DNA of 64,000 nt from a virus (lineage: Duplodnaviria; Caudoviricetes): IMG/VR virus record IMGVR_UViG_3300005686_000008, one strand, 5' to 3'. The position numbers were made by a program, and so were the translations under genes. A model generated the notes under the pieces. That model saw only the letters and a list, made by a program, of their open reading frames with translations. It was not told the origin of the DNA and did not search any database. Below are positions 2,749 through 57,920 of the stretch, piece by piece (positions within the stretch are counted from its first letter, which is position 1; each line of letters starts with the position of its first letter).

Positions 2749-3168
2749 ATGGGAACCGAAGAAGGCTTACGGGAATTAATGAACGAGGTTGAATCTCTTG
2801 CCAAAAGAGTTGAGTCAGGAGAAATCCCTGAAACAGCAATGCCTCGATTTTTTTACTGCGGACATAAGCATGTATGCAGTTATACGGGGACAGAATGGTT
2901 CAAGTGTTCATGCGGTCATACTTGGTCTGTAAGCGAGTCTCAATACATAGACGATTGGAGAAAAGACAATAAAGTTCAGTATTCATGTCCTGCTTGTAAA
3001 AAGTCTGAACTGCCTCAGAATATACACTGGTATCATGAATATAATCAAGAATCTCGATGGGAATGTCTTGGATGTAAGCATCAATGGAATGCAAAAAACG
3101 GAGAAGTATGCCCATCGTGCAACTTGAATCACAAGGATTTTAGGCAATGCCAGCCGCCGACGTTATAA
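2749..3168 (+). CDS. zinc-ribbon protein
   Basis: Multiple CxxC/CxC pairs; SD AGGAGG. Confidence 0.6.
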   Translation: MGTEEGLRELMNEVESLAKRVESGEIPETAMPRFFYCGHKHVCSYTGTEWFKCSCGHTWSVSESQYIDDWRKDNKVQYSCPACKKSELPQNIHWYHEYNQESRWECLGCKHQWNAKNGEVCPSCNLNHKDFRQCQPPTL

Positions 3169-4199
3169 CCCCTAAACTGCTAGAACGCGATGATTTTCGC
3201 AAAGCAGTTTTCCTACGCGATAAACATACTTGTGTTATCTGTAAGGCCCCAGCGGTTGACGCTCATCATATCTTAGAGCGTAGGTTGTTTTCTGATGGTG
3301 GTTATTATTTGAATAACGGAGCAAGTCTCTGTTCTGATTGCCATTTGAAGGCAGAAATGACAACCATTTCTGTTGAGGATATTAGAGCCGCTTGCGGTAT
3401 TTCTGAAAATAGCAAAGTTCTTCCTGAACACCTTTATGATGATCAGCCTTATGACAAATGGGGGAATCCTATTCTTCCAAATGGAAGAAGAATGAGAGGA
3501 GAGCTTTTTGACGATTCTTCTGTTCAGAAAATACTGAACGAAGCAAATGTTCTTTCTCTATTTAGTAAATACGTTAAATACCCTAGAACGTGGCATCTTC
3601 CCTGGTCTCCTGGCGCAACCAAAGATGACCGCATTATCAAGACCACTGATCAATTCAAGGGTCAAGAAGTTGTTGTAACTATTAAGATGGACGGCGAAAA
3701 TACTACAATGTACAATGACTACATTCATGCTCGCTCTTTGTCTGATAAGAAGCACTGGTCTAAAAGTTGGATTAAGAACTTTCATGGTAGCATTGCTCAT
3801 GATATTCCAGAAGACATGAGGCTTGTTGTAGAAAACCTGTATGCCAAGCATTCTATCAAATATATAGAACTTGAAAGTTATTGCTATGGCATTTCTGCAT
3901 GGATGAATATGACTTGCCTTGAGTGGGATACTTCGTGCGAATGGTTTGCTCTTTTGGGGATTCCTGTTGTTCCGGTTCTTTATAGAGGAGAATGGGACGA
4001 AGAAAAGATTAGCTCTATTTTTGTTGATTACGATCTAAATGAGGGATATGTTGTAAGACTTGTTAGGTCTTTTCATTATAAGGATTTCTCTAAGAGCGTT
4101 GCAAAGTTTGTTAGGAAAGGTCATGTAACATCTGATGACCACTGGTTCTATGGAAAAGCGGGAGAAGTGAATAGTCTCAAGGAATCTAAAAATGTCTAG
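3147..4199 (+). CDS. HNH domain + ATP-dependent RNA ligase (Rnl2-like) fusion
   Basis: N-terminal RDKHTCVIC..DAHH..NGASLCSDCH (HNH); C-terminal KYPRTWHLPWSPG, KMDGEN (motif I), EGYVVR, AKFVR. Confidence 0.8.
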   Translation: MPAADVITPKLLERDDFRKAVFLRDKHTCVICKAPAVDAHHILERRLFSDGGYYLNNGASLCSDCHLKAEMTTISVEDIRAACGISENSKVLPEHLYDDQPYDKWGNPILPNGRRMRGELFDDSSVQKILNEANVLSLFSKYVKYPRTWHLPWSPGATKDDRIIKTTDQFKGQEVVVTIKMDGENTTMYNDYIHARSLSDKKHWSKSWIKNFHGSIAHDIPEDMRLVVENLYAKHSIKYIELESYCYGISAWMNMTCLEWDTSCEWFALLGIPVVPVLYRGEWDEEKISSIFVDYDLNEGYVVRLVRSFHYKDFSKSVAKFVRKGHVTSDDHWFYGKAGEVNSLKESKNV

Positions 4200-9245: not shown

Positions 9246-11915
9246 ATGTCAGCAGGAAGACCAAAAGGAAATTTTTCTATTGCTTGGGCTGGTGCGGTTA
9301 CAAATGATGCGGCATCTGGTTCTGTTGCGTGGACAAATCCTTCTAATGCTGGGTTGCAAGATGATTCTTGGGCTACAGCATCTTTAACAAATAATGATAC
9401 TCAATATCTAAAGGCAACAAACTTTAATTTAATTCCAAGCATTCCAGCTACTGCAACTATAATAAGATTGAGTCCTGTTGTAAAAGGAAAAAGGAATGTT
9501 ACTTCTCCTTCTATTACTGATGCAGAAATCAAGTTTATAAAATCTGGAGTAATATCTGGAAATAGCTTTTCCAATGGGTCTGAATTGGGATCTAGTCAGA
9601 ATGTTGGATCTCAAAGAAACACCGTTTATTATGGAAGAGATAATGATGAAACTGGTGGACTTTCCTGGTCTTATTCAGATTTGACAAATGATACAAATTT
9701 TGGATTTGCTTATAGAGTTCAATCAACAGGAACGGCAACTGCAAGCGTGGACGCTCTTGGATTAATGGTATATTGGCAAGACACTCCCTCTGCCGTATGT
9801 ACAGCAAAAAGCCCAACAACAGGACAGCCTTCGGGAACTTTTATTAATGTGGATGCTCATTCTAGTATTATTGGAGATTCTTCATGGGAAAGAGTAGGAT
9901 TTAGATGGACAATAAAAGGTCCAGATGGATGGTCTATGACCACATTAGATCCAAGAAGAGGAACTGATATTAATGGGATTTCTCATAAATGGTCAACAGA
10001 CCTTACTGGAAGAACCATTTCTATTTATGCAGATAGAGCTGGTTCGTATAAATTCTTTTTTGATATGTATTTAGAAAATGGAAGTGTATTACGAAGCAAT
10101 GTTGTAACAGTAATTATAGATGCTAAAGCAACAACAAAAAGATATCTGAAGCCATCTTCAGGAAATAATGGAAATGATGGATTAACTGAAAACACTGCAT
10201 GGCAAACATGGTCTTACGCATTAACAAACACTCCAAATGATTGTACACTAATACTAGTAGATGATGAGACAATAAATGTAACATCAACTTCATCAAAATC
10301 CAATTGGACAAGGGTTTTAGTAACAAGGTCTAATACCGGAACGAATAGGCCTACTTTTAATATATCTGCAAGTCAAGCGCTTGGTACATTTACTGGAGAC
10401 GTTGATCTTGTATTTAAGGATATCAATTTTGGAGATTATACTGCCTATTCTGAATCAACAGTTCCTTATTTGATAAATGGATATAGTCATACTAGGTTAG
10501 GTATTATAAACTGTATTGGAGATAGATTTAACTCGGTTGTAGAAATAACATCTTTAGGGTCTAGTGATGGTATATTCATAATAAATAACAACTTAGGTAA
10601 CTTTAGAAGATACGTTTTATTTGCAGGTGGAGACCGAGTAAAAAACGTAGTCATAGCTGGCAATATAGTAAAGAGCGCAACAACAACAGGAGGAGAAGCC
10701 GCAATACGATTAGCGGCAGCTACTACTATTGATTGTTCTACTGGATATGGAGCTAATATTTTCTGGAATACTGCTCAATATAATCAAGGAGTTGCAAATG
10801 CTCAATCTTTTGTAAGAGTTGGTTGGTCTGGAGTTGATATTTGGGCTAATAGAGTTGATAAAATGGCGTGGGCGTATGCAGAAGGAGCTAACGGGGATAC
10901 TGTAGTTTCTCATATTATGGGAAACAGATTTGACGGAAATGATATAACTCAATCTAACGTATCAATAACAAATCAAAGGAATTCTTTTGGGTCTTTTTTC
11001 TGCAATCAATTTTTTGACGAAATGGATAGACCTTGGATTGCATCAAAAGCACTTGATTCTCTTAATTGGATACAAATTGCAAATACAACATGGAAAACAA
11101 CAACAGGGACAACTAGCATTGTTAATATTGAAAACGCAGATGGGACAACAAATCCTGGAGATATTTGGGGATTAGAGTTCAAAAATAGTTTATTCATTGC
11201 TGGATCAAGTTGGAACAGTACATGGTTTAGAGACCCTTCTTCACAAGGAACATTTGGATCAAGAAGTGCTAATATATCAAGAAATGTTTATAATAAAGCG
11301 GCTTCTACTAACTGGAGAAATGCCGGAACTTCTTTGAATCTTTCTAGCTGGAATGCGCTAAGCACTGTTGCCAATGAAGCGGCTGAATCTACTTTAACTT
11401 TAGCAGATATAGATGCTTCTACAAACTGGCTTCCTTCATCTGGGTTTACTACGGCAAGAACAAATGCATCTCCAGAACCTGGAGTATATTGGGATTATAG
11501 ATTTGTAAATAGAGATAATTCCGCAATAACATGGTCAACTGGATGTACTGGAACAGAAAGCGTTCCGTCCGCTCCATCTTTTACTATTACTCCTGGTTCA
11601 AGTCAAAATACTTTAGTATTAGGAAGTATAGGTAGCCTATTGAAAAGATCCATTTTTAGGTCTCTTACTTTTAGCGGACCTTACAATTGGATAGCAGAAA
11701 CAACCTCAAGTAATTTTGTTGATAATTTAGATGACAATTTAGTTGCTAATGGATTGACAAATGGAGTGACTTACTATTATGTTGTAGTAAATATTGATTC
11801 AATAAGGAATGTTTCTCCTTTTAGTTCAGAAATGAGTGGAACTCCAAGTTCAGAAGGAAAAACTTTGTTTATAGGGAATAGAAGTGGAACTCCATATTTC
11901 ATTTTTAACTCATAA
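9246..11915 (+). CDS. putative tail/receptor-binding protein (beta-helix, C-terminal FN3-like)
   Basis: GNNGNDGLTENTAWQT motif typical of beta-helix starts; GLTNGVTYYYVV..S..S FN3-like end. Confidence 0.6.
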   Translation: MSAGRPKGNFSIAWAGAVTNDAASGSVAWTNPSNAGLQDDSWATASLTNNDTQYLKATNFNLIPSIPATATIIRLSPVVKGKRNVTSPSITDAEIKFIKSGVISGNSFSNGSELGSSQNVGSQRNTVYYGRDNDETGGLSWSYSDLTNDTNFGFAYRVQSTGTATASVDALGLMVYWQDTPSAVCTAKSPTTGQPSGTFINVDAHSSIIGDSSWERVGFRWTIKGPDGWSMTTLDPRRGTDINGISHKWSTDLTGRTISIYADRAGSYKFFFDMYLENGSVLRSNVVTVIIDAKATTKRYLKPSSGNNGNDGLTENTAWQTWSYALTNTPNDCTLILVDDETINVTSTSSKSNWTRVLVTRSNTGTNRPTFNISASQALGTFTGDVDLVFKDINFGDYTAYSESTVPYLINGYSHTRLGIINCIGDRFNSVVEITSLGSSDGIFIINNNLGNFRRYVLFAGGDRVKNVVIAGNIVKSATTTGGEAAIRLAAATTIDCSTGYGANIFWNTAQYNQGVANAQSFVRVGWSGVDIWANRVDKMAWAYAEGANGDTVVSHIMGNRFDGNDITQSNVSITNQRNSFGSFFCNQFFDEMDRPWIASKALDSLNWIQIANTTWKTTTGTTSIVNIENADGTTNPGDIWGLEFKNSLFIAGSSWNSTWFRDPSSQGTFGSRSANISRNVYNKAASTNWRNAGTSLNLSSWNALSTVANEAAESTLTLADIDASTNWLPSSGFTTARTNASPEPGVYWDYRFVNRDNSAITWSTGCTGTESVPSAPSFTITPGSSQNTLVLGSIGSLLKRSIFRSLTFSGPYNWIAETTSSNFVDNLDDNLVANGLTNGVTYYYVVVNIDSIRNVSPFSSEMSGTPSSEGKTLFIGNRSGTPYFIFNS

Positions 11916-12658: not shown

Positions 12659-13717
12659 ATGGCAATACTTGAATATTTGTGGTTAGATGGTTACGCTCAT
12701 AATGAAGAACATCCTCAAGATGTAGCAAACATTCGTTCCAAAGTAAAAGTTATTGAAGGCAATAAGATAGGAAGTATTGAGGATCTTCCTCTTTGGAGTT
12801 TTGACGGTTCTAGTACCATGCAGGCTTCTGGCAATAAAAGCGATTGCCTATTGAAGCCTGTTTTTGTTTGTAATAATCCTTTGCGTTTTTCTTCTAGTCA
12901 CTCAACTCATATTGTGATGTGCGAAGTTTTAAATGCGGATGGAACTCCGCATAAAAGCAATGCTAGAGCAAAACTGACTGAAGTATGGAATAAGCATAAA
13001 AAACATAAGATGTGGTTTGCTCTAGAACAAGAATATGCAATCTACGATCAATATGGAGAGAATCCTTATATGTGGCCAGATAATGGTTATCCCTCTCCGC
13101 AGGGTCGTTATTATTGCGGCGTTGGCTCTGATGTTGCTTGGGGACGACAAATAAGCGATGAACATCTTGAGGCTTGCATTGATGCCGGACTGCCAATATC
13201 AGGCACGAACGCAGAAGTTATGCCTTCTCAGTGGGAATATCAAATTGGACCTAGCGAGGCTCCAACAATCGCAGACCAACATTGGGTTTCTAGGTTCTTG
13301 TTAAATCGTATTGCTGAAAAATATAAGGCTACTATCAAGCTTGACCCAAAGCCAGTCAAGGGGGATTGGAATGGAACTGGTTGTCATATTAATTTCAGCA
13401 CTGAAGAGATGAGAAAAAATCTCAACATTCAAGATGTTGAAATCATTTGCAAGGCATTGGAAAACAATATTCCAAAACATCTTTCAATGTATGGCAAATG
13501 CAATGAACAAAGACTGACTGGCAAGCATGAAACCTGTTCTATTCATCAGTTTAGATACGGAGATGCAGATAGAGGCGCTTCTATTCGTATTCCGCCAGGC
13601 GTCCTAAAGGCTGGCAAGGGGTATTTGGAGGATAGAAGACCTGCCGCAAATATAGACCCATACGAGGCTTGCATGGTTCTTATGGATACTGTTTGCGGAG
13701 TGTATCAGCCTTCTTGA
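12659..13717 (+). CDS. glnII: glutamine synthetase type II
   Basis: EYLWLDG, WSFDGSST, EQEY, PQGRYYCGVG, NAEVMPSQWEYQIGP, GDWNGTGCH, RLTGKHET, RGASIRIP, YLEDRRPAAN. Confidence 0.95.
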   Translation: MAILEYLWLDGYAHNEEHPQDVANIRSKVKVIEGNKIGSIEDLPLWSFDGSSTMQASGNKSDCLLKPVFVCNNPLRFSSSHSTHIVMCEVLNADGTPHKSNARAKLTEVWNKHKKHKMWFALEQEYAIYDQYGENPYMWPDNGYPSPQGRYYCGVGSDVAWGRQISDEHLEACIDAGLPISGTNAEVMPSQWEYQIGPSEAPTIADQHWVSRFLLNRIAEKYKATIKLDPKPVKGDWNGTGCHINFSTEEMRKNLNIQDVEIICKALENNIPKHLSMYGKCNEQRLTGKHETCSIHQFRYGDADRGASIRIPPGVLKAGKGYLEDRRPAANIDPYEACMVLMDTVCGVYQPS

Positions 13718-18505: not shown

Positions 18506-18958
18506 ATGGATAACATACTGTTTGACATTCGAGGCGATAAAGGGCAGTTCAAAGCCGCAATGGATTATATCAAATCTATTGCTCCAGGCGGCAAAGCCGT
18601 TCGCTATGCTATTGTTCCCACAAAAGGATTGGTTCTTTTCTGGCATGAACAAGATGATAAAATTGTTAAACTAGACTTCCCGTATATAACAGATCCTAAA
18701 TGGAATAAGGATACTGCCAAATCTTTTAATGTTGAACTTAAAAAGTTTGATATTCCTTGGGAGAAGTTTGTAGAGGCGTGGGTTTTTTCTACAGATCCTA
18801 CTCAGTTTGAACTTGATGAATGGGAAAGAGACCTAGAAGATTTTGATGGTAGCACTGGTAATGGTTTTAGAATAACTTGCGATACATGGGGTCATGTTGG
18901 TGGAAACCATTATGCATTTGCTATCATAAAGCCGATTTTTGCATGGTATGGCAAATAA
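18506..18958 (+). CDS. hypothetical phage protein
   Basis: Packed ORF ending PIFAWYGK. Confidence 0.65.
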   Translation: MDNILFDIRGDKGQFKAAMDYIKSIAPGGKAVRYAIVPTKGLVLFWHEQDDKIVKLDFPYITDPKWNKDTAKSFNVELKKFDIPWEKFVEAWVFSTDPTQFELDEWERDLEDFDGSTGNGFRITCDTWGHVGGNHYAFAIIKPIFAWYGK

Positions 18959-18971
18959 AAGGAATTGAAAT

Positions 18972-19331
18972 ATGAGTATTGGAACCTCAGAAGCAAAGAG
19001 TATGCTCAAGAAATGGAACAGCCTTCAAAAGGTTGCTGATAAGCTAGGTCTTTACATTTCTGATGAATATTCAGATCAAGACTATGAATATGTAGTTGTC
19101 CCAAAGAATATGAAGAGGCATCTTCCTGTCCTTATTGGTCTTCATGATCAAAATGGGTTCCGCAACAATTTCCCAATTTGGTATCTTGAAAATATGGATA
19201 GCATTTTAGACTTCCTTGGAGGCATTGCGCTTTCTCAAGGGAAAGTCTTGACTGTAGAAGATAACGATCATGACAAATGGATTCTTGCAGATCCTGAAAA
19301 GTTTAGCGCTAAAGACCTGAACAGGGATTGA
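18972..19331 (+). CDS. hypothetical protein
   Basis: SD AAGGA; ORF. Confidence 0.6.
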   Translation: MSIGTSEAKSMLKKWNSLQKVADKLGLYISDEYSDQDYEYVVVPKNMKRHLPVLIGLHDQNGFRNNFPIWYLENMDSILDFLGGIALSQGKVLTVEDNDHDKWILADPEKFSAKDLNRD

Positions 19332-19336
19332 TATAA

Positions 19337-19410
19337 GCCCCCGTAAGCTCAATGGTAGAGTTAGGAGTCTCTAAAACTCTTTGTTGCAGGTTCGAGTCCT
19401 GCCGGGGGCG
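19337..19410 (+). tRNA. amber suppressor tRNA, anticodon CUA
   Basis: Acceptor GCCCCCG/CGGGGGC; D arm GCTC/GAGT; anticodon arm GGAGT-CTCTAAA-ACTCT; T arm GCAGG-TTCGAGT-CCTGC. Confidence 0.85.
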
Positions 19411-19413
19411 TTT

Positions 19414-19626
19414 ATGGATTTCAAGTATTTAGAACGAAAGCATGGGAGGGCTTTTGTTGTTCAATTGAGAAAAGATTTCAAGGATTTTGAAACTCATATT
19501 AACAATGGAGGCTTTGTTCCCGGCGGAGGCTGGTGCAGCTGTCACGAAAGATATGACTGTCCATGCTGGAAAGAAAGATGGCCTGACCTTGCAAACGAAC
19601 CTTATCCAAGAAAGAAACAATTATGA
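19414..19626 (+). CDS. hypothetical protein
   Basis: ATG just after tRNA; Cys cluster. Confidence 0.5.
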   Translation: MDFKYLERKHGRAFVVQLRKDFKDFETHINNGGFVPGGGWCSCHERYDCPCWKERWPDLANEPYPRKKQL

Positions 19627-19835
19627 TTTATGCATTTGCATGGGATTGCTATTCTAATCAGCCTTGGCTCTTTGTAGCTAAAGACGAACAAGAAATGCTT
19701 GAAAAGCTAAAGAGAGAGTTCAAAGAGATAGGTAATACTCTCAAAGAACTAAAAGAAAATCTTCGCAAGTCTGATTTTGGGCAGGGGTCTAGGGGTGGAA
19801 ATTTTGAAATCGTAACCCCAAGAGAACCAAAATGA
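19623..19835 (+). CDS. hypothetical protein
   Basis: ATGA overlaps. Confidence 0.55.
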   Translation: MIYAFAWDCYSNQPWLFVAKDEQEMLEKLKREFKEIGNTLKELKENLRKSDFGQGSRGGNFEIVTPREPK

Positions 19836-20071
19836 AATTTGAGATAGAAGGTAAAGTTCTTATTGCAAATCAACGGCAAGTAAACGGCCCGGATACTTGT
19901 CGGGAGTTAGATATTACTTACCTGTGTTCCATGCAAGATGCTGATGGCGATTTTATTGGAAATGATAATATCCATATTTCTCTTCCTTATAATATGAAGT
20001 TCAAAGAATCTGCTTTGATGAATATGGAAGGTAAAAGGATTAAAATAACAGTTGAATTGGAGACAGCGTAA
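19832..20071 (+). CDS. hypothetical protein
   Basis: ATGA overlap. Confidence 0.55.
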   Translation: MKFEIEGKVLIANQRQVNGPDTCRELDITYLCSMQDADGDFIGNDNIHISLPYNMKFKESALMNMEGKRIKITVELETA

Positions 20072-20515
20072 ATGTACACAACTCTTTCTCTCAAACAAGT
20101 TGACGAAGTTTTCAAGAACGATGGTCTTATTTTAATCATTCTTCATGAAAAACATGGGACTCGTAACGTTGTATCTGAATCTTCTGATGGTTTTTTCAAG
20201 TTCTTTCTTGAACTTCTTAAGGACCGCAAAGATTTTGGCTACTTCCATGAGCCTGATGAACCTCAGAGTCCAAGCATGTCAGAAGATGCTGCTAATGCAT
20301 TACCAGCTGGACCTGTCAAGAAAATGGCTTTGGCAGAAATTGAAAACTACAAGCAAAGTCTCAGGTTCTACAAAAATGATAGAAACGAGTTCTTGACTGT
20401 CAATAAGGCGCTGGAAGAGGGAAATGGTCGTCTTGCTTATTCTATACTTAAATCTCGTTCCGATATGGGAGCTGAGTACGAAGAAATGACAGTTGAAGAG
20501 CCGGAGTATGCCTAA
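20072..20515 (+). CDS. hypothetical protein
   Basis: Packed ORF. Confidence 0.6.
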   Translation: MYTTLSLKQVDEVFKNDGLILIILHEKHGTRNVVSESSDGFFKFFLELLKDRKDFGYFHEPDEPQSPSMSEDAANALPAGPVKKMALAEIENYKQSLRFYKNDRNEFLTVNKALEEGNGRLAYSILKSRSDMGAEYEEMTVEEPEYA

Positions 20516-20829
20516 TGGTTAAGACAACTATTGTTGAAGTGAGTCAGTTTCTTCCTCCGAATGGTAGAAGGATTGTGGCTCAAGTGGAACTCCCGTCTCA
20601 TATTAAAGAAAAATACGAATCTATTATAAGTAGCGGATGTAGACTGACTTATGAGGTTCTTGGCAATGGCGTGGCTTCTATGACAATAGAAGAACCCGCT
20701 CTTGGCGATTTCGTGATTAGGCTATCTCCGTCTGGTCAAAAAGCCGATTTGGTTCTTACCAAAATGATTGAGTCCTTTAACCAAGAGGAATTCGATAAAT
20801 GGAAGAACCAAAGAAAACAATTCATGTAA
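20515..20829 (+). CDS. hypothetical protein
   Basis: TAATG overlap. Confidence 0.6.
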   Translation: MVKTTIVEVSQFLPPNGRRIVAQVELPSHIKEKYESIISSGCRLTYEVLGNGVASMTIEEPALGDFVIRLSPSGQKADLVLTKMIESFNQEEFDKWKNQRKQFM

Positions 20830-20947
20830 AAGATTCCAAATCCGCCAGCGAACAAAAAACTCCGCAAGGCGGCAAATATCACAAGTATATCTTTAAGAAA
20901 ACTCGCCCAAATAGGTTTTCTGCTGCCAAAAATAATAGGCGAGATCA

Positions 20948-21895
20948 ATGACAAAATATGATCTTTACAAAAGAAATGAAAAAATGATAAGGGAAGAATG
21001 GTTCAAAAACCATATTCCTGAGCTTGTCATTTTTCAAGATGATTTTATCAAAATCAAATGGAAAGAACCCGGTACATGGAATATGGCCGTTGTTTACTAC
21101 ATTGACTGTAAGATGGCTTATCTTATGGTTGCTGGTGATCTTGGAGAAGCAACTTATCAATGGTCAGCCCCGATTAGTCTTGATTTCGTCGGCGGATGCA
21201 ACTTAGATTACTTCAATGGCAAATGCAGAGCGAGTTCATGCGGAGAACGAGGCCAAGAGTGGAGTCAGGAAGTTGCAGAAGATTGGGTTCGTTCCTATAT
21301 TGAAGATCATACTCTTGGAGAAGATCAAGGCGATTCTATTTTCGAGTCTTTGTTTTCAGATGGATATGTTGAAGGTCTTCTCAAAGAAAAAGACCCAGAG
21401 ATTGCTCGCTTCTATACAGAAGAAGACTACAAGAGTTGGCGAGAGATTTCTAGAGAAGAAAAAAACAGGTTTATTGCGATTGCCAAAGAATATCTAAGCA
21501 ATCTTGCTAAGACTTCTGAGTGGAAGAAGTTTAGTAAGGTTGATTATCGCAGAGAACTCATTGAAAAGCAAGAAAAGTTTGAGGATTTAGGCCCTGACGC
21601 TATTGGCGCTTGCGAATCTGAGTTTTCTTGGCTTAGGTGGATAGGTGATAATGGATACGAGTTCTTTGGTGATGACTACTACGAGTTTGGAGATATTGGA
21701 CGCACCATATCTCTTCGGGTTCAATCTCACCTAATTGGACTAAAAATGATTCGCGAAGGTATACTTGCCGGCAAGTATATGAATCCTAGTACCAGATGTC
21801 CCTGGCTAAAGTTTTCGAATTGGTTCAGGGGGAAGTTCAAAAAAATCACAAAAATCCGTGGTCCCAGGCTAAACTTTCTGCGGAAAAGCCGATAG
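20948..21895 (+). CDS. hypothetical phage protein
   Basis: 315-aa ORF; L.VAGDLGEA.Y..YF.GK motif. Confidence 0.7.
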   Translation: MTKYDLYKRNEKMIREEWFKNHIPELVIFQDDFIKIKWKEPGTWNMAVVYYIDCKMAYLMVAGDLGEATYQWSAPISLDFVGGCNLDYFNGKCRASSCGERGQEWSQEVAEDWVRSYIEDHTLGEDQGDSIFESLFSDGYVEGLLKEKDPEIARFYTEEDYKSWREISREEKNRFIAIAKEYLSNLAKTSEWKKFSKVDYRRELIEKQEKFEDLGPDAIGACESEFSWLRWIGDNGYEFFGDDYYEFGDIGRTISLRVQSHLIGLKMIREGILAGKYMNPSTRCPWLKFSNWFRGKFKKITKIRGPRLNFLRKSR

Positions 21896-21902
21896 AGTAA
21901 GA

Positions 21903-22065
21903 GTAGAGTTGTTCGGAAAGTCTGGTATATGTCTCGTATAAACCCTTTTGAAGGCGGGGCAAGCCGCCGCCCGTAAGAGGGGTAGGGTGTAAAAGTACAC
22001 CACCTATGATCAGGGTGGAAGTTGGCTCCCAACCAGCGTTTACCAGATTTTTCGAACAACTCTGC
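21903..22065 (+). ncRNA. structured RNA of unknown family (leader of Pth2-like gene)
   Basis: ~25-bp closing stem GTAGAGTTGTTCGGAAAGTCTGGTA/TACCAGATTTTTCGAACAACTCTGC enclosing GC-rich hairpins (GGCGG/CCGCC, GGTGTA/TACACC, ACCCT/AGGGT). Confidence 0.6.
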
Positions 22066-22081
22066 ATAAAAGGAGTTCAAA

Positions 22082-23281
22082 ATGACGTAGGTACAAACAC
22101 AACCCGTATACTTGTATGTTCTCGTAAGGGAAGACCTTACACCCGTTTCTCAAGTCGCCGTTCAATCGGCGCATGCGGTTATTGAGGCCATTCGAACCTT
22201 TGCTCCCGGCTAGAACCAGGAACATCCGCATCTTGTTCTTCTTTCCGTGAAAAACGAAGAAGAGCTACTGAAGGCCCATGATCGCCTTCAGTATTTTGGC
22301 ATTCAGGTCGCCAAGTTCCAAGAACCTGATTTACTTCGCAAAATTGATACAAAACTTCTTGTAGACCGAAGTAATCCAGTTTCTAAACTGATCAATGGTC
22401 ATCGAGAGTTTAGCAATGTTGCAAGTTTTGCAACATGGAACACAATTTTCTTTGGTATACCCCAAAGAATTGTCAGTTCTATCAATTCCATTATAAACAA
22501 ACCCTCTTTTGCTAAATGGCTTAAGTATTGTTGCTGGTTTTTGACCACAGTATATGCAATCGCTTTGTGTAAGCCTCTTAATATCTTCAAAAGACAAATT
22601 AAAAGATTTGTTTCGTTCTTTTGCACTCTTCTTGTAACTAGCAAACAAAATATTGAAAGGTCCATCAGGATTCCTGATCGAAGTTTTCCAACTACATCCG
22701 CAATTATCGGAAATTCCGCTTCTGAGATTGTGTCCAGAAACAATTTTTTGAGTTCCGCAGGAACATTTACAAAGAAAATACCTACCTCTTCCAGTTATAT
22801 GAGAGGGGCGAGGAACTACAGAAATGACCTTCCATTTCCCGTAAACTTTGCCTGTTTCATCTTTTCCAGTGTTTTGAGTTTGACCAAGGCAGCCACAACT
22901 TTTACTTGTTCCATTGCGAAGACTCTTGCCCATTACCATACGTTGTGTTTTATTAGGACATTGGCATTCGCAAAAGAAAAACTTTGCACTAGAAACAATC
23001 CCTTCAGGTTTTTTGCCTTCAGAAATAACCTTCCATCTACCAAAGATACTACCAATAGGAATTTCAATTTTCATATCCCCTCCAATAAAGTAGTATCGAC
23101 TGTTTCTTCAATAAACAATAATTGCGATAGTTACGAAATAACAGCTATCGCTACGGAACCGCTTCCTGCGGACTCCAAGCTGCGCCGCAAGTTTAGTTGC
23201 TACAACCTTCTCAATTTAGATCCTGGCGAAACCTCTCAAAAAGAGACTGAGCTATCCCCTGCGCGAAAGGAAACTATATGA
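22082..23281 (+). CDS. Pth2-like peptidyl-tRNA hydrolase with two in-frame TAG codons and a large in-frame insertion
   Basis: SD AAGGAG; MT*VQTQPVYLYVLVREDL..QVAVQSAHA..PG*NQEHPHLVLLSVKNEEELL..FQEPD[insert]EITAIATEP..RKFS..LL; TAG at 22088 and 22211. Confidence 0.7.
22331..23074 (-). CDS. HNH-type homing endonuclease (antisense, inside Pth2-like gene)
   Basis: Two G..GxWKVIS..CxCxC..LR.G.S..CGC repeats; CIYCG..NGIDRTDNSLGYTKENCVPCCKTCN; SD GGAGGG; only convincing minus-strand gene. Confidence 0.85.
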   Translation of the reverse strand: MKIEIPIGSIFGRWKVISEGKKPEGIVSSAKFFFCECQCPNKTQRMVMGKSLRNGTSKSCGCLGQTQNTGKDETGKVYGKWKVISVVPRPSHITGRGRYFLCKCSCGTQKIVSGHNLRSGISDNCGCSWKTSIRNPDGPFNILFASYKKSAKERNKSFNLSFEDIKRLTQSDCIYCGQKPATILKPFSKRGFVYNGIDRTDNSLGYTKENCVPCCKTCNIAKLSMTIDQFRNWITSVYKKFCINFAK

Positions 23282-23841
23282 ACAGTTTTCCCGTCATTGT
23301 TATCAGCCATATTCAAGATTGCGAACTTGGAAGTTATTTCAGAGGCGAATGCGATTGGAGGCACTGCAAAAGCGCCAACATGGAAACGGGCATTTTCAAC
23401 TCTCTTGAAGATATTGCCAATCATATCGTAAAGCTTGACAGACAATTCTTTGATGAAGTTCAAAGAACTAACTTCTATAGCGAGTTTGAAGAAAAGATCG
23501 CCAGGAACATTACCAAAGAACACGACCCAAAGTTTGAATATTCTCACTTGATTATTTCCAAGAACAGTTTTTCTGATGATAACTTCGGTATCAGCGGAGA
23601 AAACGGGACCATTAATACTCCGACAGACTGGGAATACACGGATGAACTTCTGAAACTCGTTGTTCAGAAAAAGAAAACCGCAACAGCAAATAGGCTTGCA
23701 AATGAGGAGAAACAAAAGATAGAAAAGGAGCAAAAGCAAAAACAACAAGAACAGCAAGAGCAAGAAAGAATGCGTTTGTTAAATGAGGAGCATGATAAAC
23801 AAGAATATGCTCGTCTCAAGGAAAAGTACGAAAACAAGTAA
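23278..23841 (+). CDS. hypothetical protein with coiled-coil tail
   Basis: ATGA overlap; Q/E/K-rich C-terminus. Confidence 0.6.
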   Translation: MNSFPVIVISHIQDCELGSYFRGECDWRHCKSANMETGIFNSLEDIANHIVKLDRQFFDEVQRTNFYSEFEEKIARNITKEHDPKFEYSHLIISKNSFSDDNFGISGENGTINTPTDWEYTDELLKLVVQKKKTATANRLANEEKQKIEKEQKQKQQEQQEQERMRLLNEEHDKQEYARLKEKYENK

Positions 23842-23866
23842 CCATTTTTAGAAAGGAAAACAGTTT

Positions 23867-24322
23867 ATGACTACGACTCAGAATATTCAGAAGAACAAGT
23901 TCAATCAGGACGCTTATCAAAGCCGTTGGGGTTTCCATGCTTGCGATTACCAGACTTTCCTCAAGATTAAGAAGCTTTATGGCTTCTATTGGAAGGCTCT
24001 TCGTCGTAATGGCGAATGGAATCGCTGGAATAGGAAGGAGCCTCAAAATAGGATTCTTCGCAAGTGGTATCGTAATGCTCAGGGACAAAAGACTGGATAC
24101 GAGATTGTTGGGCCTAAGCCTGAACCTAAGCTGTATCCTGTTTTCGGTGCTTTGAATTATGTTCTTCAGGGAGACCATGCTCTGAAGGCTATGGGAGTTG
24201 TTGATGCTTACTTGACTGCAAGGCATCCTTATCCAACTGCCGAAGAGGTTCCTCAACTTGGATTGACAATTGAGCAGATCAACAATATGCTCGCTCATCT
24301 TGAAGAGTTTGAGGCTCAATAA
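23867..24322 (+). CDS. hypothetical protein
   Basis: SD AAGGA; followed by terminator. Confidence 0.7.
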   Translation: MTTTQNIQKNKFNQDAYQSRWGFHACDYQTFLKIKKLYGFYWKALRRNGEWNRWNRKEPQNRILRKWYRNAQGQKTGYEIVGPKPEPKLYPVFGALNYVLQGDHALKAMGVVDAYLTARHPYPTAEEVPQLGLTIEQINNMLAHLEEFEAQ

Positions 24323-24706: not shown

Positions 24707-25897
24707 ATGTTGAAGATTAACACAATGCTTGCAGTTCTGGGTATGGCGCTCGCTACAACGAGCTATGGCCAGACGGCGGTTTCTAATGAAGACCGCTCTT
24801 TGACTACGGCTCTTATTGCTGATGCTCAGACCAGAACTGGCTGCGACAGCAATGGTGTAACCGGACATGATTCGTCCGGTTTCTTTCTTTCCGGCAATGA
24901 CGGTTTTAGGATGAATATTGGCGGCGACTTCCAGTTCCGCTATACCTATAACAACAGCGATGATGCTGATGCAGAGTATGGGTTTAATATTCCTCTTACC
25001 CGTCTTCGTTTCAACGGAACGATTCATAACAGTCTTGACTTTATGATCGAGCCGGGCTTTAACGATGACAGCGGCGACGTAGACCTGTATAATGCCTTCA
25101 TTGGTTGGCAGGCTATGGATAATGGAAGGTTGCAGTTTGGTCAGTTCCAGCTTCCTTTCTTGAGGGAAGATAGCACTCCCGACCGCTTCCAGCTTGCTGC
25201 TGATAAGTCCATCATGTCTTACATCTTTGGTCAGGGATACTCCCAGGGCGTTCAGTTTGCATATGACGCTGGCGATTTCCGCATGATTGGAGCCTTCTCT
25301 GACGGATTCAATTCTGCCAATACGGATTACACAGATCCTGCTGAGGCTGATTATTCCCTGACTGCAAGGGCTGAGTATCTTGTTGCTGGATCTAGGTCTG
25401 ATTTCTCAGACTTTACTGCTCAACAGAATCAGCAGAACTCCCTGCTCTTGGGCGGCGCTGTAAACTACCAGGACAGCGACCTTCAGAGTAATGTATTCTC
25501 CTATACGGGAGATGTTTCTTGGGAGAACAGCGGATGGAATGCCTATCTTGCTGGCGTAGGTCGTAATATGGACGATCTTGGCGAGAGCTTCAACGATTAC
25601 GGCGTTGAGCTTCAGGGCGGATATAGGGTTACTGAACAGATTGAGCCGTTCGTTCGTTACGATGCAATCTTTGCTGATAGCGCAAGGAATCTTGCGAACG
25701 ACGACATGAACTTCCTTACCGCTGGCGTAAACTATTACCTTTACGGTCATGCGGCCAAGTTTACTGCTGATGCGGTCTGGTCTCTGGATGACACTTCTGG
25801 TCTTAGCTCTTTGGGCGATTTCTCTCATACGGGAGTCCTCGGTTCACCTGAAGACAATGAGATCACTCTCCGTCTCCAGTTCCAAGTTCTCTTCTAA
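24707..25897 (+). CDS. outer-membrane porin (OprO/P-like, planctomycete-type)
   Basis: Signal peptide; FQFRY, RLRFNG, FGQFQLPF, GVNYY, C-terminal LRLQFQVLF beta-barrel signature. Confidence 0.8.
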   Translation: MLKINTMLAVLGMALATTSYGQTAVSNEDRSLTTALIADAQTRTGCDSNGVTGHDSSGFFLSGNDGFRMNIGGDFQFRYTYNNSDDADAEYGFNIPLTRLRFNGTIHNSLDFMIEPGFNDDSGDVDLYNAFIGWQAMDNGRLQFGQFQLPFLREDSTPDRFQLAADKSIMSYIFGQGYSQGVQFAYDAGDFRMIGAFSDGFNSANTDYTDPAEADYSLTARAEYLVAGSRSDFSDFTAQQNQQNSLLLGGAVNYQDSDLQSNVFSYTGDVSWENSGWNAYLAGVGRNMDDLGESFNDYGVELQGGYRVTEQIEPFVRYDAIFADSARNLANDDMNFLTAGVNYYLYGHAAKFTADAVWSLDDTSGLSSLGDFSHTGVLGSPEDNEITLRLQFQVLF

Positions 25898-25971: not shown

Positions 25972-26595
25972 ATGTCTATCTTTCAATATCAATGCACTAT
26001 TTGCAAGAAGTTTCACGATTCCATATCTGAGGCGTCCTCTTGTAAAGAAAACTGTCTCAAGAACAAAGACAGCAGGAATGTCATTGATATATACAAGTAT
26101 TGGAAAACAGAGGCAATAAAGGCAGACCTTGACAAGAAGCGCCACAATTTTTCTGTTTTGATTACAAATCACTTCCATGACTTCAATATTGGGGCTGTTA
26201 TTCGTAACGCAAACGCCTTTCTCGCTTCCAAGGTTTATATATTGGGCAAGAAAAAGTTTGACGCAAGAGGGGCGGTTGGAACAAACCACTATGAGAATCT
26301 GGTGAATATTGATTCGATGGACGATTTACCTCTTGGGAGCGTTATTATTGGATTTGATGATGTTCCTAAAGCAAAGCCGATAGATAGCTATTTGTGGAAT
26401 AAATCTCAACATATTATCATGTGTTTTGGGCAAGAAAGCGTTGGTCTTACCGAAAATGTCCTAAGTCGATGCAATGAAGTCTTGTATATAAGACAGTATG
26501 GCTCAGTAAGAAGCCTAAATGTTGGTTGCGCAAGCGCTATTGCAATGTTCTCGTATTGCCAGCAACTTATCGGAGGACAAAGGCTTGAAAAATAG
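25972..26595 (+). CDS. SpoU/TrmH family RNA methyltransferase
   Basis: NIGAVIRNA, FGQESVGL, IRQYGSVRSLNVGCASAI. Confidence 0.9.
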   Translation: MSIFQYQCTICKKFHDSISEASSCKENCLKNKDSRNVIDIYKYWKTEAIKADLDKKRHNFSVLITNHFHDFNIGAVIRNANAFLASKVYILGKKKFDARGAVGTNHYENLVNIDSMDDLPLGSVIIGFDDVPKAKPIDSYLWNKSQHIIMCFGQESVGLTENVLSRCNEVLYIRQYGSVRSLNVGCASAIAMFSYCQQLIGGQRLEK

Positions 26596-44324: not shown

Positions 44325-44618
44325 ATGTTCAACCCTGTCGAGTGGATGAAAGAGCAGTATGCCGAATCATTTTGCCTTAGTATGGTAACTCTCATACTGT
44401 CAGTCCCTCTTTCTGTATTCGCATTGGGGCTTGAAATTGGCTGGTTGTTTTATGTTTCTGTTTTCGTAACACTCTTTGCTATTGTCTTGTTTATAACTAC
44501 GCTGGTCCTTTTTGTTCTCGAAGAAAAGCGTAAGGAAACGGAAGCAGCAGAAAGAAAGAAGAAATACTATGGAAATGCCGTTGACAAATCTGGAGAGAGT
44601 TCGTCAAGGAAGGCTTGA
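44325..44618 (+). CDS. membrane protein
   Basis: SD AGGAG; two TM segments. Confidence 0.6.
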   Translation: MFNPVEWMKEQYAESFCLSMVTLILSVPLSVFALGLEIGWLFYVSVFVTLFAIVLFITTLVLFVLEEKRKETEAAERKKKYYGNAVDKSGESSSRKA

Positions 44619-46050
44619 GAAGATTCGAGAACTTGGTATTGACCCATACGGAATTCCAGTTTTTGAAATAAAGCCTATTTATGAGGTTGTTGATTCGTTT
44701 ATAGGTAATGAATCTACAGCTTCTCCAGAGTATCTTGCAAGAGAATGGAGAACGCAAGGTCGCATTGTCTTACTAAGAGACAATGGCGGTCTTATTTGGC
44801 TTAAGATTCGAGATGATTCCAGAGAGGTTCAAATTGCCATTAGCAAGAAGGATGTAGTTGGAGAGAAGACTTTTCAACTTGCCAAGCTTCTTGACCTTGG
44901 AGATATTGTATTTGTTGTAGGCACGTTGCGCAGGACAAAGACTGGCGAAATTACTATATGGGCGACGGATGTTGGATTGGCCTGTAAGAGCCTCGCCCAT
45001 CCTCCTGATAAGGTTGCAGGACTTCAGGATGTTGAATTGAGATATCGTAAGCGGTACATTGATATGGCCTTTAATGAAGGCTTTATCAAGACTCTTAAGA
45101 TTCGTTCAAGAATCATTCAACTTTTACGTTCAGAGTTTGAAGATAGGCGTTATATCGAAGTTGAAACGCCGATGCTTCATCCTATTGCTGGCGGCGCTGC
45201 GGCAAGACCATTCAAGACCCATCTAAACGCCCTTGATATTCCTCTTTATATGAGAGTTGCTCCAGAACTCTATCTCAAGAGGCTCATTGTTGGAGGAATG
45301 AGAAGAGTCTTTGAAATCAATCGCAACTTCCGTAATGAGGGGATTGATGCAACTCACAATCCTGAGTTTACCGCCCTTGAAGCGTATGCTATCAATGAAG
45401 ATGTATTCTCATTGATGAATCTGGTTGAAAGCATTATTAAGGACGTAGCCCGTAACCTTTTCAGGAGTCCCCCTTCAAGCAATCCGCTCCCGGATCCTGT
45501 TCATGTTTACAATTACGATGGATACGAAATTGACTTGCGTTCTCCGTTCAAGATTGTCAGCTATAGCGAACTCTATCATAGAGCAACAGGTCTTACTTTG
45601 ACCGAGGATACGGACTTTGTAAAGGCCAATGAAATATTTGAAGAGAAGGCAGAAGTCCTTATTGACCCAAGAATTCCTACGTTTGTTCATGGATATCCTG
45701 CCGCTATTTCTCCTCTTACAAAGGTTGCTTCCAAGCAGTCAATTATTGCGCAAAGAGCAGATTTGTTTATTGGCGGCATGGAAATTGGAACTATCTATAC
45801 TGAGCAAAACGATCCGAATGTTCAATATAACGTGTTTACCAATCAACTTGCCGGGGACGATGACGAAGAATCTACCCATAGAACCTTAGATGAAGATTTC
45901 ATTGAAGCCTTGAAGGTTGGTATGCCTCCTACCGGAGGACTTGGAATCGGCATTGATAGGTTAGTAATGCTTTTGACTGGAAACACAAGTGTTAGAGACG
46001 TTATCGCATTCCCGTTTATGAGGCCGCTTCACTCAGCAGTGGCCGACTAA
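44569..46050 (+). CDS. lysS: lysyl-tRNA synthetase, class II
   Basis: OB-fold GRIV..LDLGDIV; RYRKRYID, EVETPML, GGAAARPF, APELYLKRL, FRNEGID.THNPEFT, GMPPTGGLGIGIDRL. Confidence 0.95.
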   Translation: MEMPLTNLERVRQGRLEKIRELGIDPYGIPVFEIKPIYEVVDSFIGNESTASPEYLAREWRTQGRIVLLRDNGGLIWLKIRDDSREVQIAISKKDVVGEKTFQLAKLLDLGDIVFVVGTLRRTKTGEITIWATDVGLACKSLAHPPDKVAGLQDVELRYRKRYIDMAFNEGFIKTLKIRSRIIQLLRSEFEDRRYIEVETPMLHPIAGGAAARPFKTHLNALDIPLYMRVAPELYLKRLIVGGMRRVFEINRNFRNEGIDATHNPEFTALEAYAINEDVFSLMNLVESIIKDVARNLFRSPPSSNPLPDPVHVYNYDGYEIDLRSPFKIVSYSELYHRATGLTLTEDTDFVKANEIFEEKAEVLIDPRIPTFVHGYPAAISPLTKVASKQSIIAQRADLFIGGMEIGTIYTEQNDPNVQYNVFTNQLAGDDDEESTHRTLDEDFIEALKVGMPPTGGLGIGIDRLVMLLTGNTSVRDVIAFPFMRPLHSAVAD

Positions 46051-49402: not shown

Positions 49403-49525
49403 GCGCCTGTAGTGTAATGGCTAGCACGCTAAAACATCCTGACCAATTACTTACCGAACAGGTCGAACGGAAAGGGTTATCTCTATATCCCAGAGGTAGT
49501 TTGGGTTCGAATCCCAACGGGCGCT
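49403..49525 (+). ncRNA. tRNA-like Y RNA (YrlA-like, circularly permuted)
   Basis: Acceptor GCGCCTG/CGGGCGC, D arm GTG..TAATGGCTAG..CAC, T arm TTGGG-TTCGAAT-CCCAA; anticodon arm replaced by CTTACC-GAACA-GGTCGAACGG module. Confidence 0.75.
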
Positions 49526-49592: not shown

Positions 49593-51293
49593 ATGGCAAA
49601 CTATGGAAAGTTGACTGGTTCTCTTAGCTCCAAGACCCCAAAGGCTACCCCTCAGACGGTACAGACTCCTGGAACCGTTCAGAATAACGCCGGTGGTTTC
49701 GTTTTTGAGATTAATAAGTGGGACCGCCTGGACCGCTTCCTGATCCTCGGTACGGATGGGGCAACCTATTACTGTACTGAGCGCAAGATGACTCTTGATA
49801 ATGCTAAGAACGTTATTGAGTGCATTAAGGAGGATGGTCTGCGCACCGTTCAGCGCATCGTTGAAATCAGCGATGCTGGTCGCGCTCCAAAGAACGACCC
49901 TGCCTTGTTTGCTCTTGCGCTTTGCGCAGGTCATGATTCGGCTACGCCCGAGACTCGTCGCGCTGCTCTTGCTGCGCTTCCGAAGGTTGCTCGTATTGGA
50001 ACTCACTTGTTCCAGTTCGCGCACTTCGTTGACGGTTTCCGTGGTTGGGGTTCTGGTCTTCGTAACGCTATCGCCAACTGGTATAACGGTATGAAGCCTG
50101 ACCGCTTGGCTCTTCAGGTTGTCAAGTATCCTCAGCGCACCGCAGAAGAGGGTAACTCCAAGTCTTCCTGGTCGCATGATGACTTGCTTCGCAAGTGTCA
50201 CGCAAGGGGCGACGAGCTTCACAATATGATCTATGCTTATGTAACTCGCGAAGGCAAGTTGCCTGACCCTGTACCTGAGCAGCTTGTTATCCTTGAGGGT
50301 GCAAGCAAGATCAAGGGTCAGACTAACCCGAGCATCGTTGCTTCTCTTGTCGAGGAGTACCAGCTTCCTCACGAGCTGATCCCGAAGGAAGTCGCTAACG
50401 ATCCGAAGGTATGGCAGGCTCTCTTGCCTCACATGCCTATCACCGCTACTATGCGCGTTCTCAACCGCCTTACTTCGTATGGAGTTCTTAAGCCGTTCTC
50501 CAGCGAACTCAAGATGGTTACTGAGCGCTTGACCAACGTTGAGCAGATCAAGAAGGGTCGCGTTCACCCGTTGGCCGTTCTTGGCGCTCTCAAGACTTAC
50601 TCCGCAGGTCGCGGAGTTCGCGGAAGCCTTACCTGGTCGCCAATCGCCCAGGTATCTGACGCTCTCAACGAGATGCTTTACCTTGCGTTCGACGCAATCG
50701 AGCCAACTGGTAAGAACATCCTTTTGGGTCTTGACGTTTCTGGTTCTATGACCGGCGGTAGCGTTGGTGGACTTGACTTCGTTACGCCTCGCGAGGCATC
50801 TGCTGTTATGGCGATGGTTACGGCGCGCAGCGAAAAGAACTGGCACGTTATCGGCTTCACTTCTGGCGGATATTCCTACGAGAAGGGAACTTCTGGTAGG
50901 TATGGTTTCGGCGGGAACTACGGAGTTACCGAAATCAATATCAGCCCGAAGGACAAGCTTGATACGGTTTGCAACAAGATTGAGAAGCTTCCAATGGGAG
51001 GTACTGATTGTGCCCTGCCGATCATGTATGCTCTTGAGAAGGGTCTTAATGTTGACGCCTTCGTTACCTACACGGATAACGAGACTTGGGCTGGTTCTAT
51101 CAAGCCTCACGAGGCTTTGAAGATGTATCGCAATCAGCGTAACCCGCAGGCGAAGGTGATTGCGGTTGGTATGACGGCTACGGAGTACAGCATCGTTGAC
51201 GAGAACGACGCAGGTTCTATGAACTTCGTTGGATTCGACACGAGCGCCCCGGCTCTCATGGCGGACTTCATCCGTAAGGATTTGCGCCGCTAA
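49593..51293 (+). CDS. rsr: Ro60/TROVE-domain RNA-binding protein (Rsr)
   Basis: NNAGGFVF..RFLILGT.G.TYY, RIGTHLF.F..RGWG, LLRKCH, MPITATMRVL, vWA LDVSGSM, GGTDCALP, TDNETW, GFD; SD AAGGAG. Confidence 0.95.
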   Translation: MANYGKLTGSLSSKTPKATPQTVQTPGTVQNNAGGFVFEINKWDRLDRFLILGTDGATYYCTERKMTLDNAKNVIECIKEDGLRTVQRIVEISDAGRAPKNDPALFALALCAGHDSATPETRRAALAALPKVARIGTHLFQFAHFVDGFRGWGSGLRNAIANWYNGMKPDRLALQVVKYPQRTAEEGNSKSSWSHDDLLRKCHARGDELHNMIYAYVTREGKLPDPVPEQLVILEGASKIKGQTNPSIVASLVEEYQLPHELIPKEVANDPKVWQALLPHMPITATMRVLNRLTSYGVLKPFSSELKMVTERLTNVEQIKKGRVHPLAVLGALKTYSAGRGVRGSLTWSPIAQVSDALNEMLYLAFDAIEPTGKNILLGLDVSGSMTGGSVGGLDFVTPREASAVMAMVTARSEKNWHVIGFTSGGYSYEKGTSGRYGFGGNYGVTEINISPKDKLDTVCNKIEKLPMGGTDCALPIMYALEKGLNVDAFVTYTDNETWAGSIKPHEALKMYRNQRNPQAKVIAVGMTATEYSIVDENDAGSMNFVGFDTSAPALMADFIRKDLRR

Positions 51294-57572: not shown

Positions 57573-57920
57573 ATGGTGAAAAAAACTGTCGATTGGAAAA
57601 TCGGAGTTCCACCTTTTTCGTCAAAAATCGAGTATTCTTGGGCTGTAGCCGAGAAAGTGAATCTGTTTGACACTATAATCGTTGCGAAAAAGGGGTTGGA
57701 ATGGTGGGCTTTCCGTAAGGGAACCGAACAACCAACTCTCTTTGGAGAAGGTCTTGAAAAGGAAATAGACTTGTTAGGACTCAAACCTGTTGCAATGGGT
57801 TTATCCTTTGAAGAAGTAGTTTGTAGAGCATCTCTTGTTTTGGCATCGGATAAGAAAAATGAGCAAACCAGTCGGTCCAATCAACAGTGTAATCGAGAAC
57901 CTGAGAAGGTTAGTTCCTGA
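57573..57920 (+). CDS. hypothetical protein
   Basis: PPFS..I..SWAVAEK..VCRASL pattern. Confidence 0.5.
   Translation: MVKKTVDWKIGVPPFSSKIEYSWAVAEKVNLFDTIIVAKKGLEWWAFRKGTEQPTLFGEGLEKEIDLLGLKPVAMGLSFEEVVCRASLVLASDKKNEQTSRSNQQCNREPEKVSS

Follow-up and report, generated by a model that had tools for sequence, protein, structure and literature searches.

How a phage gene with two amber codons inside its reading frame could be expressed, when the genes around it use TAG as an ordinary stop, is the question raised by a locus in the viral record IMGVR_UViG_3300005686_000008. The window analysed here is a 64,000-nucleotide (nt) stretch of this record, and it sits inside a contig of at least 212 kb from a bioreactor-sludge metagenome. 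The gene, called pth2 below, encodes a protein resembling the Pth2-type peptidyl-tRNA hydrolases; a tRNA gene with the anticodon CUA (tRNA(CUA)) lies upstream of it, and an endonuclease gene has been inserted into it. In this study, we propose that pth2 is probably translated in a suppressor-dependent manner, within a conserved module of tRNA(CUA) and Pth2-like gene that in the window has been invaded by the endonuclease. The features of the locus, including its open reading frames (ORFs), are as follows.

19337..19410, plus strand: tRNA with anticodon CUA, a candidate amber suppressor (ARAGORN; Rfam RF00005, 54.8 bits against a gathering score of 29)
21903..22066, plus strand: structured RNA element within the 186-nt spacer that precedes the Shine-Dalgarno sequence of pth2 (RNA fold)
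22070..22075, plus strand: Shine-Dalgarno (SD) sequence AAGGAG, 6 nt before ATG 22082 (sequence)
22082..22330, plus strand: 5' part of the pth2-like gene, codons 1-83, ending FQEPD (Pfam PF01981, alignment to homologous locus L001, fold)
22088..22090, plus strand: in-frame TAG, codon 3, next base G (sequence)
22211..22213, plus strand: in-frame TAG, codon 44, next base A (sequence)
22331..23134: insertion of 804 nt, or 268 codons in the pth2 frame, replacing codons R-N-N of the uninterrupted allele (alignment to L001)
22331..23074, minus strand: HNH homing-type endonuclease gene, 247 amino acids (aa) (phrog_374, E 1.5e-21; 43 homologues)
23135..23281, plus strand: 3' part of the pth2-like gene, from EITAIATEP to the TGA at 23279-23281, its frame continuous with that of the 5' part across the insertion
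23278..23841, plus strand: downstream ORF of 187 aa, its ATG overlapping the pth2 stop (ATGA) (ORF list)

The frame opening at ATG 22082 reads M-T-TAG-VQTQPVYLYVLVREDL... and, counted with the insertion, the plus-strand pth2 frame runs for 399 codons, with TAA and TGA absent throughout. An initial annotation made from the letters alone had placed AAGGAG before this ATG and TAG at codons 3 and 44, and had described a Pth2-like motif series. The coordinates were borne out by the sequence and the motifs by a match to PF01981, but the series is not contiguous, as 804 nt lie between FQEPD and EITAIATEP. The CUA tRNA that it had noted 2.7 kb upstream was recovered by both ARAGORN and Rfam. This tRNA gene is wedged between two ORFs on the same strand as pth2, and has the anticodon loop CU-CUA-AA, the discriminator G and no encoded CCA.

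A protein search with the 5' part of pth2 returned nine close homologues of 119-137 residues and a more distant one, P0012, all of them without the insertion. Every close-homologue contig that was fetched gives its database protein only when TAG is read as Q, with the TAGs at codons 3 and 43/44, and a scan of viral contigs added six further close relatives with the same two TAGs. Eleven sequences from independent assemblies, 65-99% identical to the window gene, were aligned by codon, and both TAG columns contained TAG in all 11. Among the conserved sense-Gln columns, five of six switch between CAA and CAG, and TAG occurs nowhere else in the gene in these sequences. A TAG serving as an ordinary Gln codon would exchange with CAG; since no such exchange was seen, TAG is not just another Gln codon here. 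Synonymous changes at codons 4-10 indicate that these codons are translated. The same TAGs are present in the independent assemblies L001-L016, and an independent 2024 metagenome contig spanning 22086-22236 differed from the window at one position (22196), both TAGs being unchanged. Taken together, the TAGs in 11/11 sequences, the coding-type substitution and the independent contigs exclude decay and assembly error. Two expectations in the initial annotation, that the early stops would be positionally conserved and that the sequence around them would be under selection, are supported by the constant columns in all 11 sequences, by the recurrence of ATG-x-TAG in distant relatives and by substitution of a coding type. 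Of the contrary signs it had listed, namely sense codons in homologues, relaxed selection and assembly error, none was found among the close relatives, in which the TAGs are conserved.

The assignment of the protein was examined by profile and by fold. PF01981 (PTH2) matched residues 11-81 of the query formed by residues 1-83 (E 4e-6; 27.4 bits against a cut-off of 23), a marginal match, and the whole 399-aa read-through scored 23.5 bits against the same cut-off; a precomputed PF01981 match was available for eight of the ten homologues from the protein search. NCBIfam gave no match for the Pth2-like protein, and in PHROG the two best families are of unknown function and a weak third match is named 'hydrolase'. 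An AlphaFold2 (AF2) model of the uninterrupted homologue P0003, built from an 80-sequence alignment, had a predicted local distance difference test (pLDDT) score of 90.1. When the model was searched with Foldseek, Pth2 structures alone were matched confidently (2zv3, 1q7s, 1wn2, 3erj and 1xty; probability 1.0, template modelling (TM) score 0.65-0.74), and the next unrelated match had an E of 0.14. The fold is that of canonical Pth2 (PF01981), whereas sequence identity to it is just 15-25%. The family membership put forward in the initial annotation was supported by the profile score above the gathering threshold and by the Pth2 alpha/beta fold of the model, and the protein is best described as a divergent, PTH2-like protein with a predicted PTH2 fold and a predicted hydrolase function.

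In hidden Markov model (HMM) alignments to 1rzw and 2zv3, the canonical Pth2 features R-D-L and Q..HA (Q28, H31, A32) are kept. The active-site residues of Pth2, as known from the Sulfolobus and human enzymes, are the Lys of the G-K motif and the Asp of D-A-G. The D of D-A-G falls at E81/D83, two positions that hardly vary across the family, giving an acidic residue before the last strands. In the AF2 model, residue 3 belongs to the free N-terminal tail and residue 44 to the loop between helix 1 and strand 2, in agreement with the earlier view that both TAGs fall outside the conserved motifs; the insertion site is the hairpin between strands 76-81 and 87-93.

The wider family is phage-borne, and a profile search for it with E up to 1e-3 returned 2,395 cluster representatives. 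Linkage and TAG counts were made over 49 non-redundant loci with DNA, 18 of which carry an in-frame TAG. ATG-x-TAG behind a good SD was found in the close clade, in the distant loci L017, L018, L019, L024 and L045, and in phage ME3, the distant homologues with this recurring start being 32-54% identical. L022 combines ATG-x-TAG with an internal TAG, in L028 the TAG is codon 4, and in L021, L033 and L038 an internal TAG is the only one. The gene of the cultured Acinetobacter phage ME3 begins ATG ACT TAG, with tRNA-CTA about 410 nt upstream; the annotation of ME3 places the gene start at an internal codon. At 36/49 loci a tRNA(CUA) lies no more than 3.2 kb from the gene (same strand in 35, within 600 nt in 25). 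The co-occurrence with a cognate suppressor tRNA anticipated in the initial annotation was seen for 16 of the 18 TAG-bearing genes, with the tRNA mostly upstream on the same strand, and the close relatives L011-L016 likewise carry a CUA tRNA 2-3 kb upstream of pth2. At 5497-5648 of L015 there is a tandem pair of different tRNA(CUA) genes, the second type of which is the sole one in L016 and L065. Within the close clade, the suppressor tRNA has evidently been duplicated or replaced while both pth2 TAGs stayed fixed.

The base after every in-frame TAG, over about 12 lineages, is a purine. A purine 3' of UAG is a context that favours amber suppression. It also favours natural read-through, which brings in an explanation that does without the phage tRNA: the leaky UAGs would hold a potentially toxic hydrolase at a very low level, being read by near-cognate host tRNAs or when release factor 1 is scarce. 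The many TAG-less homologues paired with tRNA(CUA), for which the role of the tRNA must exceed pth2, fit such an arrangement. We nevertheless consider it unlikely, given the presence of a CUA tRNA in the fetched stretch of nearly every TAG-bearing gene, usually upstream on the same strand, and given that two serial stops would leave almost nothing at natural read-through rates.

The standing of TAG in the surrounding genome bears on a second alternative, in which TAG encodes an amino acid in part of the genome and pth2 is one of many recoded genes. Genes in the window are nearly all on the plus strand and densely packed, leaving this strand almost fully coding under the standard code. TAG terminates 15 of the 92 ORFs, as was to be expected from the initial annotation, which held that the code is not globally reassigned. 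The base after these natural stops is A in seven cases, G in two, T in five and C in one. The next in-frame stop follows within five codons in 7/15 TAG-ending ORFs versus 17/77 ORFs ending in TAA or TGA, a trend only, which was not used as support. One of the TAG-ending genes, the TilS-like gene at 57859-58842, is followed in frame by a sigma factor gene that carries its own SD. Phage suppressor tRNAs and stop-codon recoding are documented (bioRxiv 10.1101/2021.08.26.457843; PMC9523058), and the 64-kb window is part of a far larger genome, both of which favour recoding beyond pth2. However, no other convincing in-frame TAG gene was found in the 64 kb, the tail-fibre-like late gene included, and the neighbours of pth2 in the close relatives have no in-frame TAG. 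Coding density under the standard code is high in the neighbourhoods of the 49 homologue loci as well, and treating TAG as sense gave no more coding gain than a control treating TGA as sense, there and in the window. The pattern of a recoded phage, in which TAG is sense in many genes and seldom a stop, was not observed within the 64-kb window. Moreover, the TAG columns of pth2 never swap with CAA or CAG as sense-Gln columns do, and in phage XacN1 the authors found no read-through targets for the CUA tRNAs (PMC5852040). We therefore hold wider recoding to be improbable.

The insertion was analysed as a separate element. Outside the endonuclease ORF it comprises about 60 nt, which contain the SD of that ORF. 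The site after EPD is filled in the window and in L016, L071, L072 and L073, and empty in L001-L015 and in an independent sludge metagenome run, X5, a contig of which joins 22330 to 23133 with CGCAACA between them, restoring D-RNN-E. From the match to a nuclease family and the presence or absence of the element at a fixed site of a conserved gene, it was assigned as a putative HNH homing endonuclease. The window and the uninterrupted L001 are 97.7% identical over the 5' part and 79.5% over the 3' part, and the X5 contig has no differences from the window on the 5' side and 17/83 on the 3' side. This asymmetry is co-conversion-like, that is, what co-conversion during homing would be expected to leave.

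A group I or group II intron and an intein were considered and rejected. With E up to 10, an Rfam search over 21700-23500 detected neither an intron nor a ribozyme or riboswitch, its only matches being chance ones to miRNA models; the roughly 60 nt beyond the ORF leave no room for a ribozyme, and the intein Cys/Ser ... His-Asn motifs are absent at the insertion ends.

The endonuclease gene runs antisense to pth2 with its codons in register with those of pth2, and it contains no TTA, CTA or TCA codon; the pth2 frame therefore stays open through the insertion. The same holds for all five copies (window, L071, L016, L073 and L072), which share 58-87% aa identity with the endonuclease of the window, and in each of them the pth2 frame is open into an intact and conserved ...TA(I/L)ATEP... 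3' part. Given the codon usage of the window, the chance of zero such codons, computed for two copies, is about 1e-3 for the window and 5e-4 for L016, whereas related endonuclease genes in other contexts contain 21 and 24 of them. We conclude that the open pth2 frame through the endonuclease gene is under selection. Coupling to the downstream ORF was rejected as the general cause of the open frame, the next gene of L071 lying about 20 nt past the pth2 stop; this junction was the one checked among those of L071, L016, L072 and L073. In L072, a 212-kb phage contig, pth2 (MKFT-TAG...) with the same antisense endonuclease occupies approximately 10740-11300 on the minus strand, and two CUA tRNAs lie upstream of it on the same strand. 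The frame of this copy changes between ...PQQA and VQSGHA, which is either a real frameshift or an assembly error, the coverage being about 7x.

Against this background, the TAGs and the endonuclease insertion might be taken as marks of a dead gene, as the 804-nt interruption and the frameshift in the 5' part of the low-coverage L072 copy would allow; such a pseudogene is very improbable when identical TAG codons occur in 11/11 relatives with coding-type substitutions around them, and when all five interrupted copies retain an in-frame 3' part that is both intact and conserved, the window copy having neither TAA nor TGA in 399 codons. An equally poor case can be made for a two-codon minigene, ATG-ACG-TAG, followed by reinitiation at a downstream start: distant P0012 does begin at the residue aligned to codon 11, which is TTG in the window, but this codon is GTT, GTC, CTG or ATG elsewhere in the 11-sequence alignment, which excludes a conserved downstream start, codons 4-10 evolve as coding sequence, residues 9-10 are part of strand 1 in the AF2 model, and the second TAG, at codon 44 between conserved motifs, could not be bypassed.

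On comparison with relatives, then, the TAGs are conserved, the rest of the gene is under coding constraint, the tRNA is linked to it and the surrounding code is standard. These four observations support the stop-gated reading of the initial annotation, and suppressor-dependent translation of pth2 would work as follows. A ribosome starting at ATG 22082 would meet UAG after two codons and, with no UAG reader present, would release only a dipeptide. If the phage tRNA(CUA) is the reader, it would decode both UAGs and the full protein would be made, the output of enzyme tracking suppressor activity and the two serial gates sharpening the response. The enzyme could then act on products of suppression, for example dropped-off peptidyl- or aminoacyl-suppressor tRNA, forming a demand-matched or self-limiting loop of prfB-like logic. 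Where the endonuclease gene has entered, its avoidance of the three stop-making codons could let ribosomes read across it and go on to translate the 3' part of pth2.

The residue inserted at UAG would be Gln, Lys or Trp. Gln is weakly hinted at by CAG/CAA at codon 3 in four TAG-less homologues, and Lys by P0012, which carries Lys at the place of codon 44. A further hint for Lys is that the window encodes a full-length lysyl-tRNA synthetase at 44569-46050 (NCBIfam PRK00484, 496.5 bits; cut-off 468), a candidate charger of CUA-anticodon tRNAs.

Several points weigh against the suppressor-gated reading. The tRNA(CUA) of the window has an odd extra base between the acceptor and D stems, and its identity, judged by global similarity to 226 other phage tRNAs, comes out about equal for Arg, Trp, Asn, Met and Lys. 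With 15 ORFs of the window ending in TAG, strong suppression would come at a considerable cost. A tRNA(CUA) also adjoins 20 of the 31 genes that lack TAG, typically 12-64 nt after the matched stretch ends, so the gate is not essential to the partnership; in phages XacN1 and Xoo-sp13 the domain is part of an HD-like fusion that contains no TAG. The lysine of the G-K motif in canonical Pth2 gives way to S-Q in the HMM alignment, and peptidyl-tRNA hydrolase activity is therefore not assured. Finally, an AF2 model of the 399-residue read-through gave pLDDT 93-98 for the PTH2 core and 32-76 for the insert, and the window copy of the enzyme may be impaired by these 268 residues.

The same wide pairing of tRNA and enzyme, broader than the gate, argues that the job of the enzyme concerns this tRNA. 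A bolder and more tentative form of the proposal is that tRNA(CUA) and the Pth2-like enzyme constitute a self-contained, self-measuring module of standard-code jumbo phages. The enzyme would act on the acylated or peptidyl form of the suppressor tRNA and the UAGs of its own mRNA would report suppressor activity, holding read-through at a set level. A separate and equally tentative idea is that the endonuclease gene evolved a stop-free antisense frame through which its host protein is translated.

Two further features flank pth2. The RNA element at 21903-22066 folds at -81.2 kcal/mol (z -6.35; equal stability in 0/200 shuffles), with a closing helix of about 25 bp around a multibranch of GC-rich hairpins. 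It is optional, being found in L015 (93.5%) and L014 (85.7%) and missing in the other relatives; it has no Rfam family, and is perhaps a small mobile or processing element. The 187-aa protein encoded downstream has no Pfam or PHROG match. As the ATG of its gene overlaps the pth2 stop, translational coupling to pth2 is possible, and its synthesis may depend on read-through of both TAGs. When 18800-23900 was scanned for promoters and terminators, the number of sites was below that in shuffled sequence.

Elsewhere in the window, the following genes were grouped as an RNA and translation toolkit.

3147-4199: HNH-RNA ligase fusion
12659-13717: GlnII-type glutamine synthetase
25972-26595: SpoU-type 2'-O-methyltransferase
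27948-29525: WGR-PARP-like protein
57859-58842: TilS-like lysidine synthetase

A phosphate-selective porin O/P-like gene at 24707-25897 (Pfam E 1.8e-13) is conserved beside the SpoU gene in L002. The gene for a Ro60/TROVE protein lies at 49593-51293, with a 123-nt tRNA-like Rfam match upstream of it at 49403-49525 (39.6 bits), which is possibly a Y-RNA-like partner of Ro60. The Ro60 gene has no TTA, CTA or TCA in 566 codons, and its antisense in-register frame is fully open. Megablast of 10 kb of the window against cultured-phage records gave no match.

A conserved, linked gene needing UAG read-through would be the first concrete target for the suppressor tRNAs of standard-code phages, and the constant company that this enzyme family keeps with tRNA(CUA) hints that the handling of suppressor tRNAs includes a step not yet recognised. 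The tRNA and leader would form a natural and portable "AND gate", a circuit that can be tested; as the module is present in the cultured phage ME3, the question is open to bench work. If the self-measuring loop is real, it would be a new class of translational homeostat, and the stop-free antisense frame, if confirmed, would add to introns and inteins a third means by which such an element spares the gene it has entered. The endonuclease gene offers a clean natural case of constrained dual-strand coding, which may be a new cost-lowering strategy of selfish DNA. A literature search gave no paper linking Pth2-type genes with phage suppressor tRNAs, and none on an antisense endonuclease keeping a host frame open.

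Among the closest known systems is phage stop-codon recoding in which TAG is read as Gln ('code 15'), described for crAss-like, Lak and other phages (bioRxiv 10.1101/2021.08.26.457843; PMC9523058; PMC10879173). Shared with it are a phage tRNA(CUA), a standard-code host, an in-frame TAG in a phage gene, and suppression as a means of timing or gating expression. Code-15 phages, however, use TAG as sense across many late genes, whereas here the surroundings keep the standard code, with TAG as the normal stop of 15 ORFs, and the TAGs occupy two fixed codons of one small translation-related gene that is tRNA-linked across many lineages.

The Xanthomonas jumbo phage XacN1 also uses the standard code and has CUA tRNAs, for which its authors could not find suppressor targets (PMC5852040). 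Like the phage studied here it combines CUA tRNAs with a Pth2-like domain, but the domain of XacN1 forms the C-terminal portion of ORF364, in an HD-like fusion with no TAG. At both L066 964-1803 (XacN1 ORF364) and L068 964-1806 (Xoo-sp13), the Pth2-like domain makes up the C-terminal third of a protein of 279 aa whose N-terminal HD-like motif is HDIGKP, and the gene for a glutamyl-tRNA amidotransferase is found a few genes upstream.

With prfB, the gene for release factor 2 (RF2), the proposed mechanism shares a translation-factor-type gene with an early in-frame stop, the synthesis of which would be set by the decoding state of the cell. The differences are that prfB relies on a +1 frameshift at UGA and is sensitive to its own product, whereas here a separate tRNA would bring about plain UAG read-through and the feedback is hypothetical.

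For the endonuclease, the closest parallel is in Aeromonas phage Aeh1, in which mobE, a free-standing homing endonuclease gene, reportedly splits nrdA into two separately translated pieces. As at mobE/nrdA, an intron- and intein-free endonuclease gene lies inside a conserved phage gene, endonuclease-free alleles coexist with it and the flanks diverge asymmetrically. Mobile elements of the T4-type phages have been reviewed (PMC2988022). Unlike that of Aeh1, the endonuclease gene of pth2 is antisense and in codon register, is without host-frame stop codons in five diverged copies, and leaves its host gene as one ORF of 399 codons.

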